Of a DNA stretch of 64,000 nucleotides, positions 12,729 to 46,244 are shown in pieces. The stretch comes from an uncultured delta proteobacterium (lineage in GTDB: Bacteria > Desulfobacterota > RBG-13-43-22). The stretch spans positions 1,533,876-1,597,875 of the forward strand of contig CAWBOS010000012.1 of assembly GCA_963790475.1 (NCBI GenBank). The letters are read 5' to 3'. Under the pieces are notes generated by a model. It was not told the origin of the DNA and searched no databases. It was given only the letters and a program-made list of their open reading frames with translations. Each line of letters opens with the position of its first letter. The stretch's first letter is position 1. The position numbers were made by a program, and so were the translations under genes.

Positions 12729-14450
12729 ATGATATCCTTTTCCCTCATAACGAACTCCACTCCGGCCGAAGAATTCTCTTCGCGGAACTGGTTTTATATT
12801 GAAGAAGATTTTTTACGGAAAACCCGGTGGCTTGTTTTATGGCGGCTGGTTTTCATTTCCTCCTTTCTTTTGCTGACTGTGTTCCTTCATGAGAAAGAGT
12901 TTTTTATCCGCTTTCCTTCTGGTTTTTCTCCTGTCTATTCCCTGATCGCCCTGCAATATTTTTTTTCAATCCTCTATCTCCTTTTTCTTTTGCGGGGGAC
13001 GGCTGTCAAAAGAATTGCCCTTTTACAGTTAGGTTTGGACGGACTTTTCGTAACGGGCGTAGTCTATGCCACTGGTGGCATAGAGAGTTTTTTTTCCTAC
13101 CTCTATTTTTTAGTCATTTTGGCCTCCGGCCTCCTTTTTTTTCGAAAGGGTGGATTATTATCCGCCCTCTATGTAGGAGTATTGTACACCCTTCTCCTTT
13201 TGCTCCAAGGTTTCGGTAAAATCCCCTTCTATTACGGGTCGACCGAGCAACCCCCTTTTGTTTCCCAGAGGTATCTCTTTTATCAGATCGTTATGAATGG
13301 GATGGGCTTTTTTTTTGTGGGTTACCTCAGCAGCATTCTTGCCGAACAAACCCAAAAACAACGAAGCCAGATTGAAAGGCAGAGGAAGAATATCGATCAA
13401 TTAGAGGAACTGAACCGGATCGTCATCGAGAACCTGGATATCGGATTGATCACTCTGGATTATGAAAACAAAATCCAGAGCATTAACCGGGCTGGAGAGA
13501 AAATTCTGGGCCGGCGGGCAGGCGATTTAGTCCATCGGCCTCTGAACACCTTGTTTCCCGATTTGGAGGGGGGTCTTGACTTCAATGGCATTCTCGAGGG
13601 AAAGCGCATGGAGACCGCCTATATTACCCCTGAGGGGGGAGTCACCACTTTAGGTTTTTCCTTTAATCGGGTTAAAGAAAATCGATCTCAAGGGATTGGG
13701 AAAATAATTTCTTTTAAAAACATCTCTCAAATTAAAATCATGGAAGAACACCTGCGTCAGGTAGATCGTTTAGCCTTAATGGGAAAAATGGCGGCCGGGA
13801 TCGCTCATGAAGTCAGAAATCCCCTGGCTTCGATCAGCGGATCGATCCAGGTCTTGAAGGATGATTTTAAAGGAAAAGGAACCGGGGAACGCCTTTTAAA
13901 TATTATTTCCAGGGAGGTGTCCAAACTGGATTCTTTAATGAATGATTTTCTGGCCTTTACCAAACCGGTTCAAGCGATTCAAACCCGTTTGAATATTTCG
14001 GAATTAATCCTGGAAACGGTTGATCTGATTAAAAAGAATAGACAGTTTTCCTCGACCATTACCTGGAAATTGGAGATCACCCCCGCCCTTTTCCTTAAAA
14101 TTTCCGCCGGAGAGCTGTCGCAGATTTTATGGAATCTTCTGATGAACGCCCTGCAGGCCGTTCCTGCCGATGGTGAGATTTCCATTGCCGCCCGGCAACT
14201 GCGAACAGAAAATCAAGAGGACTGGATAGAAATTAAAGTGCAAGATAACGGCTCCGGTATCAGCGAGGGGGATCAGGTTAAAATTTTTGAACCTTTCTTT
14301 ACAACCAAAGATCGAGGGACCGGGCTTGGTTTGAGCATCGTTCAAAAACTGATTTCTGATCTTGGCGGAAATATCCATTTGGTGAGTTCTTCAGGAAAAG
14401 GAGCTGAATTTACCATCCAATTACCTAACCCGGACAAGCCGGAACCATAG
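12729..14450 (+). CDS. pilS: Two-component sensor histidine kinase, PilS-like (TM + PAS + HisKA + HATPase)
   Basis: N-terminal TM helices with YATGGIESFFSYLY, AHEVRNPL H-box, NLLMNA, GTGLGL; follows pilC. The last 7 codons come from an inserted element; start uncertain. Confidence 0.85.
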   Translation: MISFSLITNSTPAEEFSSRNWFYIEEDFLRKTRWLVLWRLVFISSFLLLTVFLHEKEFFIRFPSGFSPVYSLIALQYFFSILYLLFLLRGTAVKRIALLQLGLDGLFVTGVVYATGGIESFFSYLYFLVILASGLLFFRKGGLLSALYVGVLYTLLLLLQGFGKIPFYYGSTEQPPFVSQRYLFYQIVMNGMGFFFVGYLSSILAEQTQKQRSQIERQRKNIDQLEELNRIVIENLDIGLITLDYENKIQSINRAGEKILGRRAGDLVHRPLNTLFPDLEGGLDFNGILEGKRMETAYITPEGGVTTLGFSFNRVKENRSQGIGKIISFKNISQIKIMEEHLRQVDRLALMGKMAAGIAHEVRNPLASISGSIQVLKDDFKGKGTGERLLNIISREVSKLDSLMNDFLAFTKPVQAIQTRLNISELILETVDLIKKNRQFSSTITWKLEITPALFLKISAGELSQILWNLLMNALQAVPADGEISIAARQLRTENQEDWIEIKVQDNGSGISEGDQVKIFEPFFTTKDRGTGLGLSIVQKLISDLGGNIHLVSSSGKGAEFTIQLPNPDKPEP

Positions 14451-14632
14451 TTGAAATATTGGAACATGTGGTGGATTCGTAAAAAGTCGCCGAAAGCCTA
14501 TTTTCGTCATTCCCTTGAAAAAGGGAATCCAGTGTTTTTAATAAGTTGAGAATAGCCTGGATTCCCGCCTCCGCGGGAATGACGACGAAATATTCTATCC
14601 AATTTGAGTAGAATTCTATTCCTAAGTTACTA
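14428..14632. mobile_element. ~205-bp non-autonomous element (copy 1), inserted at CTA^A in the pilS 3' end
   Basis: Near-identical to 42987-43195 (about 4 substitutions and one small indel). Flanked by CTAA on both sides; removal restores pilS ...QLPKEAG*. Contains a GTCATTCCC..GGGAATCCAG..CTGGATTCCC..GGGAATGAC REP-like core. Confidence 0.85.
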
Positions 14633-42914: not shown

Positions 42915-42986
42915 GGATAGGTCCTTCTTGTTAATAAAGGGGTTCAAGGTCCAAGGTTCAAGGTTAAAGGAAACCCCTTTTACCTA

Positions 42987-43195
42987 ACCCGGACAAGCCG
43001 GAACCATATTTGAAATATTGTAACATTTGGTGGATTCGTAAAAAGTCACCGAAAGCCTATTTTCGTCATTCCCTTGAAAAAGGGAATCCAGTGTTTTTAA
43101 TAAGTTGAGAATAGCCTGGATTCCCGCCTCCGCGAGACCTTATGACGACGAAATATTCTATCCAATTTGAGTAGAATTCTATTCCTAAGTTACTA
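42987..43195. mobile_element. ~209-bp non-autonomous element (copy 2)
   Basis: Near-identical to 14428-14632; same TTACCTA left flank, ends ...CTAAGTTACTA. Confidence 0.85.
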
Positions 43196-45140
43196 CGCCT
43201 CGTCCGGGAGTTCCCCGGAAGAGGTGGCCCCTAACAGGGCAGTTGACTTAAAAGCCCGGAGTCTTTAATCTGGTCTTTCCCTTAAGGGGTAGCCCCGATA
43301 TTAGCTGTAAAAGAACCTCTAATTGAGGCGGCTGCTCCGACGAGCCGCTCAGGGGCCCATTCTCGCAGCCGCCGAGAAGGGGCCCCGGCAATGACTGGGG
43401 AGCCCTCCATATCAAAAGATCGACCAGGGAAAGACCGATGATCATGGCAGATGAATTTTGCAAGCAATATCAAGACTACCTTGACGGCATTTATGATTGT
43501 ATTGATCGTATTGTGCTCAATGCCTATTTCATTTTTGGCCAGTCCCCTGGAGGATTTAGAACCTGGTGGCGGGCCTTGAAGGGAACAGATAACGATCTGA
43601 ATGATACCAACCTGATGCGTTTTGCCGGACGACTCAGCCGACGGATTCATGCCTATGCTAAGAAAGAAGGTATTCCCTTGATCCATTGCCAGCGCGGTGA
43701 ACGAAAGCACGAGGTGGCCGAGCAATATATTCCCGGGGATCCGAACTTTCGGGGTGTATTTTGTATTCTGGCCGGGATTGCTCCGGCACCCCTTTTCCAC
43801 ATTCAGCGATCTAAAAGCGGGGGGATCAGTAACATTTCCACCAAGACCCCTTACCCCTATGTCAACCATTATTCGTTCCACATAATGGATCCGGAATGGG
43901 GACATCTGACCATCAAACTCTGTCCCCATCCTCCTTTTAATGCCCAGATCATCCTGAACGGACATGAATATCTATCCCGTCAGGCCATGAAACAAGGGCT
44001 TGTCTTTACTAAAGAAGGTAACTGCTTTACGGCAGTGACCGATAGCGCAGGTCTGGACCACATCGCGGATACCATGAGGGCCTCGTGCTCTGTAGGGCGT
44101 CTGGTTCGGACCTGCGATCAATGGATTTATTCGGCCTGTCTTTGTTTTGCCTTGGATCTTTCGGAGCAGAAAGCCAGTGGCTTCCATTACAGTTATTCTG
44201 TTTATCAGATGGAGTATAGCCGCAATCTGCTTTTTAACCGAGGCCGAACTTTGGATCAGGTGTTCCAGGGCTTGATCGATCGAACCAGAGCCCCTTTGAA
44301 TCTCAAGACGGTTCGAACTATTTTTGGCTATCGACACCGGCCATTCAGTCATCACGGCAAGAAACCGTTGCCTCGATTCGAGATCACGGTCGAGAGACCT
44401 GTCTATGATCTGACGATCTTCAAAATCCATTTTGGAAAAATGACGGTCAAGATGTATAGCAAAGGCGAAAGGGTTCTCCGAACCGAGGTTATTATTCACA
44501 ATACGAGTCAGTTGCGTTGCGGAAAACGGATCGATCGTTTCCCACAGATCTGCGAATCCCTTAAAGAAGTCCTGGAAAGATTCCTCACCGTTCTGAACGG
44601 GGTCGATGTTTCTTTTATTGATAACGGTACCTTGGAGAAGTGGCCTCTGCCCTCTAAGGTTGGAGCCACCTCCGTGGGAGGGGTCGATATCAATCGGCCT
44701 CGTATCCGGGCGGTCATGGAAGCTGTTATTGCTCTTTCTATCCATCCCCGTGGATTTACGGCTGCGAATCTGGCAGAAAAAGTCCGGGAAATTCTCAGAA
44801 TCCCGCAGAGCCGGTATCAGGCTCGGCAGGCTTCTTATGACTTGAAAAAGTTTAGAGGTAAAGATCTGGTTCAAATGATCGGCCATTCGCGCTGTTATAT
44901 GGCCACCCCGGTGGGCTTGCGTTCGATGACGGCTGTCCTTGTTCTGCGGGAAAAAATATTGATTCCTCTGCTCGCTGGCGCTGAAAAGCATCATCCCGGA
45001 CCAAAACCTGGAAACTTCTCTACTATCGATATTCATTACAAAAATATCCAACATGAGATGCAACAAATTTTTGAAATTTATAAAATGGCAGCATAATATT
45101 ATCGACAAAACTTTGTCGATGTTGATTCACTAAGCGCCTA
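43196..45140 (+). mobile_element. TIR-less putative mobile element (1945 bp), inserted with the small element between the fumarase subunit genes
   Basis: Splits an alpha/beta operon and an intergenic heptamer array (GGTTCAA..ACCTA | AACCTTAAACC). Bounded by CTA on both sides, with terminal hairpins at 43198-43224 and 45101-45120. Confidence 0.78.
43438..45096 (+). CDS. Putative transposase/replication-initiator-like protein with a C-terminal winged helix
   Basis: 552 aa, sole long sense ORF of the element. KMYSK..VLRTE (Y340,K342,R348,E350) resembles the Rep_trans catalytic motif; C-terminal GFTAANL..ASYDLKKFRGKDLV..CY wHTH; no DDE triad recognised. Confidence 0.7.
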   Translation: MIMADEFCKQYQDYLDGIYDCIDRIVLNAYFIFGQSPGGFRTWWRALKGTDNDLNDTNLMRFAGRLSRRIHAYAKKEGIPLIHCQRGERKHEVAEQYIPGDPNFRGVFCILAGIAPAPLFHIQRSKSGGISNISTKTPYPYVNHYSFHIMDPEWGHLTIKLCPHPPFNAQIILNGHEYLSRQAMKQGLVFTKEGNCFTAVTDSAGLDHIADTMRASCSVGRLVRTCDQWIYSACLCFALDLSEQKASGFHYSYSVYQMEYSRNLLFNRGRTLDQVFQGLIDRTRAPLNLKTVRTIFGYRHRPFSHHGKKPLPRFEITVERPVYDLTIFKIHFGKMTVKMYSKGERVLRTEVIIHNTSQLRCGKRIDRFPQICESLKEVLERFLTVLNGVDVSFIDNGTLEKWPLPSKVGATSVGGVDINRPRIRAVMEAVIALSIHPRGFTAANLAEKVREILRIPQSRYQARQASYDLKKFRGKDLVQMIGHSRCYMATPVGLRSMTAVLVLREKILIPLLAGAEKHHPGPKPGNFSTIDIHYKNIQHEMQQIFEIYKMAA

Positions 45141-45177
45141 AACCTTAAACCGGTTACCTTATACCTTTCACCTTCAT

Positions 45178-46021
45178 TCATAAGGTCACTTCCTTATGTC
45201 GGCTGGCATGGCACTGGACATTGACTGCCAGCGGAAGGCTGGCAATGTGGCAGGGCAACAGCCGGACATGGACTCCCAAAGAGGTTGTCCGGCCCCCCAA
45301 ACCCTGGGGACCGATCCCGAGTTTATTGATTAAATCCAGAAGCTCGATCTCCAGTTGATTCCAGTTCCGAATCGGGATTAGGGCTTCCCAGGGGACGAAG
45401 CAGGGCCTTTTTGGCTTGTAACGCGGCCTGTTCAAAGGTCCCTCCAATGCCCACGCCGATAATCGTAGGCGGGCAGGGATTAGGGCCGGCTTCTTTTACC
45501 GTTTCCACAATCTTCTCTTTGATACCGGCCAGGCCGGCTGAGGGAGGGAGCATGAATATACGGCTCATATTTTCACTCCCGCCGCCTTTGGGAACCACCC
45601 ATATTTTGAGCCGGTCTCCCGGTACCATATCGATGTAAATCACAGCCGGGGTATTATCTCCGGTATTGGCCCGGGTAAACGGATGGCAGGAGGATTTGCG
45701 AAGATATCCCTCCCCGTATCCCTGACGGACACCCGAATTGACCGCCTCTTTTAAATCCCCTCCGGTCAGATGAAGGTCCTGTCCGATTTCAAGGAAAATA
45801 ACCGCCAAGCCGGTATCCTGGCAAATCGGTATATGCTCTTCCCGGGCAATCCCGGCATTTTCGATCAGTTGTTCCAATATCTCTTTCCCGACCGGAGAGA
45901 CCTCAGTTTTAAGGGACTTTTGAAAACAGCCCAGGACATCTTCACCCAGATTCTCATTGGCCTCAATGCACAGGACCTTAACCGCGTCGGTTATTTCTTT
46001 TACGTTGAGTTCTCTGATCAT
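45178..46021 (-). CDS. Fe-S hydro-lyase (fumarate hydratase) alpha subunit, frameshift near 45360
   Basis: PICQDTG, GYLRKS, NTGDNTP, KGGGSEN, GPNPCPP; C-terminal GIGPQGLGG..CHIASLP..QCHASR in a shifted frame (extra G in CTGGAATCAA). Confidence 0.9.
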
Positions 46022-46244
46022 CCGATCTCCTGCTGTGGGGGTTTCTGAATAAGATTTTCTTTTAGTTGGAATGATACTAAATAGGGTGGAAACGAGTGTC
46101 AAGAAGAAAAGATGTGAAGAGTCCGATGAAGAGATCTTGTTTTATTGGAAAGGCCCACTTGTCATTCCTTACCGGTGATGATAAGGTTATTTTTCTTGTC
46201 CGCCGATTCAGAATTCCTATCAAAAGAGATTTTGGTCATTTAAA

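Follow-up and report, generated by a model that had tools for sequence, protein, structure and literature searches.

What mobilizes a segment of DNA that contains a single gene, has no inverted repeats at its termini, and encodes a protein in which no DDE, HUH, or recombinase motif is recognizable? This question is raised by a locus in a 64,000-nucleotide stretch of DNA (henceforth, the window) from an uncultured delta proteobacterium (GenBank assembly GCA_963790475.1, contig CAWBOS010000012.1, positions 1,533,876 to 1,597,875), in which a 1,945-bp unit with a 552-aa open reading frame (ORF) lies between the genes for the C-terminal (PF05683, E = 6.4e-59) and N-terminal (PF05681, E = 1.4e-84) subunits of a class I fumarase. 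An earlier note on this DNA interpreted the unit as a rolling-circle-like transposon driven by a non-HUH tyrosine nickase with Y340 as the catalytic residue. We report that the unit belongs to a real, active, and widespread family of insertion sequences (ISs) that escapes current annotation; the existence and the anatomy of this family are secure. The protein encoded by the element probably is a Rep_trans-like, non-HUH tyrosine nickase that drives the IS, and the earlier interpretation thus gains support from the predicted fold, the invariance of Y340, and the structure of the ends.

The 1,945 bases of the unit were used as the query in a search of its own genome (6.34 Mb, 20 contigs). Among the 13 matches, five span positions 1–1945 exactly and differ by 0, 0, 0, 1, and 2 nt, so the boundaries given in the earlier note recur in five near-identical copies. 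As also claimed there, the element is bounded by CTA: this triplet lies immediately to the left of all five copies, and GCGCCTA is the terminus of all five, followed by A in four cases and by T in one. The right end of every copy is TAAGCGCCTA. The reported lack of inverted termini was borne out as well: when the 60 nt at the left end were locally aligned with the reverse complement of the 60 nt at the right end, the top score was 4, which is below the mean of 6.15 for 500 shuffles and was reached by all 500. Three miniature derivatives of about 220 bp hold the IS's own left and right ends, and each of these is preceded by CTA. In the contigs of run X1, the depth of the IS is 15, compared with 2.4–4.6 for its flanks.

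This organization is found far beyond a single genome. In a sample of the phylum, the family is patchily distributed, with carriers among 11 of 301 genomes; in species-representative genomes, 526 loci were identified in Thermodesulfobacteriota, Planctomycetota, Acidobacteriota, Alpha- and Gammaproteobacteria, and Chloroflexota, among others. Members are also present on plasmids of Rhodococcus, Burkholderia, and Mycobacterium, always annotated as hypothetical or ArsR. Plasmid NZ_OY970457.1 of Mycobacterium riyadhense, a cultured isolate, carries a 50%-identical homologue at five places, annotated as hypothetical, and the family is expanding on plasmids of Actinomycetota, too. The most informative relative is a 1,830-bp element that encodes a protein 53% identical to that of the window and is present in at least 24 full copies in a long-read alphaproteobacterial genome (G301). 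In the 15 copies of this element that were examined, the left end invariably reads flank-CTA / CGC-hairpin-GTGGCCCC, and the right end reads CGACAAA...TTTGTCG...TAAGCGCCTA. More broadly, 37 of 66 listed related loci contain the GTGGCCCC box, by which alone they were recognized, and CTA occurs just before the hairpin region in all of them. On the other side, 58 related loci extend 70 nt or more beyond the ORF, and 50 of them have NAAGNNNCTA within 130 nt; it takes exactly the form TAAGCGCCTA in 26 of these 50 loci and is followed by A in 37. Thus, homologues in other phyla, at non-syntenic positions, keep the ends and a defined insertion site, the outcome that the earlier note had looked for in a mobile family.

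The insertion site itself follows a rule that extends what had been noticed before: the element sits on the 3' side of TAAGNNNCTA, a sequence that copies the motif at the element's right end. Among 37 distinct left flanks, positions −10 to −7 are occupied by T in 25 cases, A in 31, A in 32, and G in 26 or C in 10, respectively; the search pattern used for this tally required CTA at −3 to −1. The motif TAA[G/C]NNNCTA is exact in four of the six solo copies in G301, the flanks of which are otherwise unrelated. Because identical copies in G301 differ in the NNN triplet and in the upstream sequence, the motif belongs to the target and not to the element. In the genome of the window, TAAGNNNCTA occurs 245 times, counting both strands, compared with about 829 occurrences expected from base composition; this count is uncontrolled, and the shortfall may merely reflect a general avoidance of CTA/TAG words. 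At three related loci (L036, L058, and L088), the last 8–9 nt of the right end are tandemly repeated beyond the end, for example, ...TAAGCGCCTA AGCGCCTA A; such repeats may have been left by successive rounds of cleavage and joining or by neighbors that were excised. No junction of one element with itself was observed at the loci examined, the single abutment of a right end and a left end (L082) being that of two diverged copies. The ends and the target rule of the family are now defined.

To the left of most copies of the 1,830-bp element in G301 lies a second, 1.64-kb element that encodes a 501-aa paralogue. We denote the lineage of the window IS type A and that of the second element type B. 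The type B protein shares 22% identity with the type A protein (E = 4e-26) and retains all the key residues; the left end of type B reads CCT / AAGCCGGCGGAGCCGGAACC in all 16 junctions in G301. Of 20 type B copies in this genome, 19 are directly followed by type A, and six type A copies are solo. Such head-to-tail arrangement is common elsewhere, too: 18 of 30 distinct upstream flanks (13 of 21 outside G301) contain a family ORF in the same orientation, which ends 45–66 nt before the type A left end and is mostly B-like or P0235-like and, in one case, A-like. The head-to-tail pair may be a functional two-protein unit.

The same arrangement, in a reduced form, accounts for the insert in the fumarase operon. 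The operon is split, as the earlier note stated; the separating DNA, however, is 2,154 bp long (42987–45140) and not 1,945 bp, and is a composite of a 209-bp non-coding miniature and the IS. Four of the five IS copies in this genome have a common extra sequence on the left, which is a separate non-coding repeat. There are 12 uninterrupted copies of this miniature (198–209 bp), four of them directly 5' of an IS copy, and two further copies are split by IS110-family elements, for a total of 14; each copy is preceded by CCTA and ends with TAAGTTACTA. The left end of the 209-bp unit is homologous to that of type B in G301, and it is therefore assigned to the type B lineage. One miniature stands alone in the window, flanked by CCTA on the left and by GTTACTA and then A on the right. 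The 209-bp form adjacent to the window IS contains an 11-nt scar that is identical in sequence to the terminus of an IS110-family element still interrupting another copy. The 2,154-bp composite, this scar included, is identical at three loci, and therefore, the two parts moved as one unit. No type B ORF is encoded in this genome, so the 14 miniatures and the composite presumably either are moved by the type A protein or are relics. The 209-bp partner and the longer target motif are additions to what the earlier note described.

Two inferences about these small elements had to be discarded. The two interrupted units (C12:171353-173145 and C12:1488790-1490526, both outside the window) were considered as full-length type B elements and turned out to be IS110-family insertions: the inserts, 1.5–1.6 kb in size, encode IS110-family-like proteins and lie at or beside the internal GC hairpin CCCGCCTCCGCGGGAAT of the miniature, which seems to be a target for the IS110 family. 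The fifth IS copy, on contig C15, was considered as a bare IS that would define the left end; this was rejected because the orthologous loci reveal a 72-nt insert-specific remnant before the IS. The remnant ends in TAAGATTCTA and resembles a further-reduced copy of the small element. Two additional variants were observed. One stand-alone small element, a 205-bp unit, has on its right (C10:519263) the sequence CGCCTA and then A, which equals the first bases of the IS left end fused to the last bases of the IS and may be the footprint of IS loss by recombination between CGCCT direct repeats. At C10:1521109-1521313, a hybrid small element carries the IS-type right end ACTAAGCGCCTA instead of its own.

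Comparison with genus relatives provides insert-free counterparts for these loci. The fumarase genes are 23–180 nt apart, with no such insert, in all nine orthologous loci, among which L131 has a masked spacer, and all four loci orthologous to the C15 site are contiguous where the genome of the window has 72 nt plus 1,945 bp extra; sites without the insert thus exist in these relatives. The exact empty site in the fumarase operon was not reconstructed because the spacer differs in every relative.

The hairpins described in the earlier note, an imperfect GC-rich one at the left end and a perfect one at the right end, are both present (Table 1), and the right one is followed by ...CTAAGCGCCTA, which ends at the last base of the element. 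Across 27 distinct left ends from many genomes, 96.6% of the cells in the left hairpin pair, and compensatory changes are apparent in 7 of the 11 stem pairs. The covariation score is 0.431, compared with 0.147 in shuffles, none of 500 reaching the observed value, and drops to 0.091 or less when the partner is slid. The heptamer TGGCCCC (columns 33–39) is invariant in all 27 aligned left ends. The core of the right hairpin, CGACAA...TTGTCG, recurs 3' of the ORF in relatives from other phyla. The entire leader is strongly structured as RNA, with a minimum free energy of −111.1 kcal/mol, compared with a mean of −87.9 for shuffles (z = −4.63; 0 of 200 shuffles fold as well), and matches no Rfam family; the only Rfam row is a chance-level tracrRNA (E = 0.75) at 43028–43100, inside the 209-bp element.

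Table 1. Features of the insertion sequence, its protein, and the associated small elements (coordinates in the window)
Feature	Position	Strand	Remarks
Type A insertion sequence, one ORF, no terminal inverted repeats	43196-45140 (1,945 bp)	+	five copies with identical boundaries
Leader, 242 nt, upstream of ORF, strongly structured as RNA	43196-43437	+	
Left subterminal hairpin, 11-bp stem with one G-A mismatch, 5-nt loop	43198-43224	+	starts 2 nt inside the element
GTGGCCCC box, directly 3' of left hairpin	43225-43232	+	conserved in related left ends
ORF, 552 aa, presumed transposase	43438-45096	+	only gene in the 1,945 bp
Crescent, TBP-like / Rep_trans-like (predicted), residues 1-392	43438-44613	+	
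Codon of Y340, candidate nucleophile, in K338-x-Y340-x-K342 (strand 335-342), followed by L347-R348-x-E350 (strand 346-353)	44455-44457	+	
Winged helix (predicted), residues ~395-510	44620-44967	+	
Right subterminal hairpin ATCGACAAA-AC-TTTGTCGAT	45101-45120	+	
Right-end motif TAAGCGCCTA; element ends after CTA	45131-45140	+	50 of 58 related loci carry NAAGNNNCTA
Non-coding 209-bp miniature, type B lineage	42987-43195	+	starts with ACCCGGACAAGCCGG after flanking CCTA, ends with TAAGTTACTA
TAAGTTACTA, right-end motif of the 209-bp element, with the IS on its 3' side	43186-43195	+	mimics the IS right end
Stand-alone 205-bp type B miniature, no IS after it	14428-14632	+	C12:1548303-1548507; 95.7% identity over positions 1-209

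The 552-aa protein, in which the motifs QMEYSRN...IHFG...KMYSK..VLRTE reported in the earlier note are readily located, has no match in Pfam, NCBIfam, PHROG, the sequences of the Protein Data Bank (PDB), or a PDB profile search, and its 30 nearest clusters in the ESM Atlas are all unnamed. It has, nonetheless, numerous homologues: at least 5,854 proteins at E ≤ 1e-3 among 8,000 candidates scored, and 5,216 representatives at 50% identity, 2,608 of them at E ≤ 1e-10, in an exhaustive search. Most of these are encoded on contigs of about 1.8–2.5 kb. None of the 120 homologues listed contains a Pfam domain, and their names are 'hypothetical' or guesses of a regulator; the names given to homologues among the matches listed are hypothetical, regulator (in some cases, ArsR-type), or RNA-binding protein. 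An alignment of 28 sequences, with identity down to 27%, contains 18 invariant columns, including D23, R24, D151, N174, N195, Q257, E259, Y340, R348, and E350; K342 is conserved in at least 90% of the sequences. Y340 is invariant in all 28 sequences and in the 22%-identical type B protein, as the earlier proposal required, and is the only invariant tyrosine of the predicted N-terminal domain, whereas at least 90% of the sequences retain Y19 and Y251. Residues 141–200 (about 43858–44037 in the window) contain another group of invariant polar residues (D151, W154, G155, N174, H176, and N195), located in the N-terminal half of the sheet; in Rep_trans proteins, this half contains no catalytic motif. 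Candidate roles for this group are a second active site or recognition of the hairpin or of TAAG.

Structure prediction provides the link that is missing at the sequence level. AlphaFold models were obtained with a mean local confidence score (pLDDT) of 87.4 and a template modeling score (pTM) of 0.83 for the full protein, and 89.6 and 0.89, respectively, for residues 1–395. Residues 1–392 are modeled as a single long curved sheet with helices on its back, a crescent that resembles the TATA-binding protein (TBP), followed by a winged helix; the fold search thus recovered the C-terminal winged helix-turn-helix domain anticipated in the earlier note. With both the full and the domain models, the Rep_trans initiator RepSTK1 is the best Foldseek match in the PDB, all four chains of its structure 4cij occupying ranks 1–4 (E = 3.9e-4 to 1.0e-3 and 1.2e-3 to 2.6e-3, respectively), so the comparison with RepD-type structures suggested in that note came out in its favor twice. 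With the exception of TBPs, the rows below have E-values of 3.8e-3 or higher or probabilities of 0.47 or lower. No RNase H, HUH, or recombinase fold is among the rows listed in five PDB-based fold searches, and no Pfam or NCBIfam IS model was matched.

The Rep_trans sheet has the connectivity of TBP, with conserved residues on strands 6, 9, 10, and 11, according to Carr et al. 2016 (PMC4797284), and its motifs have been summarized as N' (D), I (RxD), II (T/SxY/ExG), III (YxKxxE), and IV (W/LxRxE) in a review from 2017 (PMC5714925). The model of the crescent appears to consist of two five-strand modules with the same connectivity and, in strand order only, presents an R/KxYxK tyrosine on a strand, with xxG before and RxE after it. 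The ordered counterparts are D23 on the first strand, Q257xE259xSxN263 on residues 251–266, KxHxG333 on 327–332, K338xY340xK342 on 335–342, and L347R348xE350 on 346–353. D23, E259, and E350 are invariant and are located on the strands expected for the Rep_trans metal carboxylates (N', I, and IV). The claim that the protein is Rep_trans-like therefore stands with respect to the predicted fold and the order of motifs; with respect to a sequence or profile link, it does not.

Several observations weigh against the assignment of this protein to a Rep_trans-like nickase that acts on one strand. The residue correspondence is one of strand order. No match to PF02486 was detected by hmmscan at E-values up to 1 for the protein and up to 10 for the 28 aligned members, and a six-frame search of the genome of the window with PF02486 returned nothing. 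An hhalign comparison of the family with a Rep_trans alignment yielded a non-significant probability of 0.5%, and a sub-alignment paired only lKxYdK with riYdk (6 columns, E = 0.09, probability 0.6%); the comparison has little power because the Rep_trans alignment consists of eight sequences, four of them near-identical (no relative with less than 86% identity was listed in a protein search with RepC, and four usable Rep_trans loci came from the phylum sample). The crescent is about twice the size of the Rep_trans catalytic domain, and its counterpart of motif I consists of Q/E/N compared with R/D/D in Rep_trans. The set D151, N174, H176, and N195, in the other half of the sheet, has no explanation in this scheme, and the viral fold library returned mostly TBP-like proteins, with no RNase H-like fold. 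As to the DNA, the G301 copies lie in both orientations within about 110 kb (597–709 kb of one contig), unlike the strict strand bias of IS200/IS605; in the genome of the window, the GC skew is too weak and the IS copies are too few for relating orientation to the direction of replication. The sole empty site comparable to a left junction, which corresponds to the junction of the 72-nt remnant in a fast-changing spacer, has no CTA, and there are 3 nt of ambiguity as to where the cut falls within or beside CTA. Neither a junction of the right and left ends nor a joint across the insert is present in the contigs of four runs (assembled contigs only), the sole joint in these contigs lying inside the 209-bp element, in a copy of another organism; with contigs of this kind, the negative outcome does not amount to evidence of absence. 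A prediction of a crescent homodimer (score 0.00, mark 0.42) counts neither for nor against the proposed function.

The mechanism that we favor combines the predicted enzyme with the ends and the target rule. The protein would function as a nuclease, with Y340 as the likely nucleophile; the chemistry would involve single strands, with a nick within or beside CTA. Specifically, the protein would recognize a subterminal hairpin together with TAAGNNNCTA, and Y340 in KxYxK would nick one strand just 3' of CTA, with a metal held by conserved acidic residues, D23, E259, and E350 being the candidates. One nick site would be the right end of the element itself, TAAGCGCCTA, and the other would come from the DNA at the left, that is, the target. 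Nicks at both sites followed by an exchange of ends would release the top strand and reseal the donor; the released strand probably would be a circle joined as ...TAAGCGCCTA / CGCC..., and the reverse reaction at another TAAGNNNCTA would insert the element. Such nick-and-exchange would explain why there are no inverted repeats and no target duplication and why the hairpins are one-stranded features. Furthermore, the target mimics the right end, so any right end of the family could serve as a target, which would account for the head-to-tail pairs, and a pair could move as a unit through its outer left and outer right ends, hence the 2,154-bp composite in the fumarase operon. Both a replicative event, as in IS91, and one-strand cut-and-paste, as in IS200/IS605, would fit this scheme.

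Other explanations of the same observations differ mainly in the role that they assign to the protein. The same protein could act as an integrase-like, site-specific recombinase on double-stranded DNA, with no single-strand nicking: a double-stranded circle with the junction TAAGCGC-CTA-CGCC would recombine with the target TAAGNNN-CTA-N across the 3-bp CTA core, with an outcome similar to that of IS110/IS1111 or a small integrating element. The CTA on both sides of every copy could indeed be a crossover core, the donor site and the target look alike, the copies in G301 show no obvious bias of strand or orientation, and a winged helix is well suited to the recognition of duplex DNA. The hairpins, however, are located at both ends on the same strand, and the left one is maintained by compensatory changes, the signature of structure-specific recognition of single strands; Y340, furthermore, is the only fully invariant tyrosine of the crescent. 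The known DNA-cutting proteins of this fold, as far as they are covered in the available parts of PMC4797284 and PMC5714925, are single-strand nickases that act at hairpins, and we consider double-strand recombination unlikely. Somewhat less probable still is that the element is an integrating rolling-circle replicon, namely, a 1.9-kb plasmid-like or satellite circle whose junction is the origin and that occasionally integrates at the origin-like TAAGNNNCTA. The fold and the architecture are those of replication initiators, and the short contigs that encode most of the homologues would be compatible with small replicons, but such contigs are the product of repeat collapse in short-read assemblies, and the numerous chromosomal copies with host flanks in G301, along with the five in the genome of the window, argue for transposition. 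Moreover, the only abutment of a right end and a left end at the loci examined, L082, joins two diverged copies, and the depth in run X1 fits five chromosomal copies without an episome.

That the ORF does not encode an enzyme at all, and is instead a TBP-like, winged-helix DNA binder (a regulator or a targeting factor) of an element whose movement depends on another transposase acting in trans or on host functions, appears highly improbable. TBP, a pure DNA binder, is the top VIA match of the fold search, some sources call the homologues ArsR-type regulators, and homology to Rep_trans is undetectable by sequence. Nevertheless, the ORF and the ends travel jointly across phyla as a one-gene unit, the 1,945 bp contain no other gene, and the invariant Y, K, R, E, D, and Q/E residues on neighboring strands, in the Rep_trans order, are difficult to account for in a mere binder. 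Finally, a DDE transposon that duplicates the 3-bp CTA and has ends too short or too degenerate for inverted repeats to be visible could be envisaged, given that the spacing of the invariant acidic residues D23, D151, and E259 is compatible with a catalytic triad and that the CTA on both sides can be read as a 3-bp duplication. This possibility is close to refuted: neither the five PDB-based fold searches nor the viral one yielded an RNase H-like fold, no NCBIfam or Pfam model of an IS family was matched, the ends are not inverted at all, and the right CTA is embedded in the conserved TAAGCGCCTA, whereas the left one is embedded in the variable TAAGNNNCTA.

How does this family relate to the known mobile elements? 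To our knowledge, no IS family in ISfinder corresponds to it, and all known transposons that lack terminal inverted repeats and nick single strands (IS200/IS605, IS91, ISCR, and Helitrons) employ HUH enzymes. By predicted fold, the closest proteins are the Rep_trans (PF02486) initiators and MOB_T relaxases (pT181 RepC/RepD and pSTK1 RepSTK1; PDB 4cij and 4cwe). The family differs from these in the lack of sequence or profile similarity, in the helical inserts that expand the domain to about twice the length, in the composition of motif I, and in its carrier, a multi-copy chromosomal IS rather than a plasmid, phage, or conjugative element; given that the sequence criteria fail, we describe the protein as working like a member of Rep_trans without filing it as one. 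In the portions of the literature covered by our searches, no Rep_trans protein is described as a transposase, and no transposase of this fold was found. In the accounts of PMC4797284, PMC5714925, and PMC13107129, nickases of the Rep_trans type appear solely in the context of conjugative transfer and of the replication of plasmids and phages. A similar architecture, an N-terminal TBP-like catalytic domain followed by a winged helix, has been described for the Rep-Arvir (DUF7845) initiators of archaeal viruses and plasmids in the accessible part of PMC13107129; like the present family, these proteins were identified by structure rather than by sequence. Going by that description, Rep-Arvir are archaeal replication proteins of viruses, plasmids, and integrative elements, and none of our 28 aligned members matches DUF7845 in Pfam at E-values up to 10.

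In its anatomy, the family resembles IS200/IS605 (IS608, ISDra2), which, as far as the sources at hand describe them, lack inverted repeats, have subterminal hairpins at both ends, cause no duplication, give rise to miniature derivatives, and insert on the 3' side of a short specific sequence, so that this sequence adjoins the left end. The enzyme of those elements, however, is an HUH Y1 protein of about 150 aa, whereas the present protein has no HUH motif, a predicted TBP-like fold, and no Pfam or NCBIfam match; furthermore, with TAAGNNNCTA, the present family has a longer target, one that copies the right end, and there is no evident strand bias. With IS91, ISCR, and Helitrons, as described in the available part of PMC5714925, the family shares the lack of inverted repeats and duplication, a short specific target, head-to-tail arrangements, and the combination of one constant end with variable co-mobilized DNA at the other. 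Those elements use HUH Y2 enzymes, with a helicase added in Helitrons; no such enzyme was found here, and the extra DNA on the left is always a family member or a remnant with its own proper end, not arbitrary neighboring DNA. Features in common with IS110/IS1111 are the scarcity or lack of inverted repeats, the absence of duplication, a strong site preference, a non-coding end that is structured, and a short core repeated on both sides; the transposase of IS110/IS1111 is a DEDD (RuvC-like) recombinase (PF01548/PF02371); no such model or fold was matched, and the genuine IS110-family elements in the same genome are clearly different from this IS. DDE transposases have an RNase H-like core, inverted repeats, and a target duplication; here, no such fold is among the rows listed in the fold searches, and the ends are not inverted.

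Several observations concern the fumarase locus itself. The gene for the N-terminal subunit is split into two overlapping frames on the minus strand (45323–46102 and 45178–45447), with a frameshift near 45358 (within 45323–45447), whereas the orthologue in a genus relative is a single 288-aa frame; this could be either a 1-nt frameshift, that is, gene decay after the split of the operon, or a sequencing error. The spacer contains heptamer arrays at 42940–42970 and 45141–45175, GGTTCAA-like on one side and the complement on the other; each of the 13 genus relatives searched holds such arrays at a great many positions. Orthologous fumarase spacers differ in every genome, and one of them (L130) contains an unrelated miniature of about 150 bp with inverted repeats. 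The local effect of the insert is that the fumarase subunit genes are separated, the upstream one now being frameshifted, unless this is a sequencing error.

Taken jointly, these findings can be read as the founding case of one more chemical class of prokaryotic transposase, the sixth, namely, a Rep_trans-like tyrosine nickase with the TBP fold that drives a very large, cross-phylum superfamily of hairpin-ended ISs comprising at least three lineages (type A, type B, and P0235-like), in which the target is chosen by mimicry of the right end (TAAGNNNCTA), resulting mostly in head-to-tail pairs of different lineages, the members of which can move singly or together; we see the chances of this comprehensive reading as evenly balanced. 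Because the family is invisible to current annotation, IS content and assembly breaks are mis-scored in many environmental genomes. The tailing of other family members is a new kind of interaction between mobile elements, and the 10-nt target rule, together with the precise, scar-free junctions, makes the family a candidate for a compact, protein-only tool for site-directed DNA insertion. If the proposed chemistry is correct, the catalogue of transposases would gain a new enzyme class, and transposons built on a second nickase fold would represent an independent repeat of the step from replicon to transposon. By analogy with the relationship of IS91 to HUH replicons, these elements may be what connects Rep_trans-type rolling-circle replicons with transposons in evolution.

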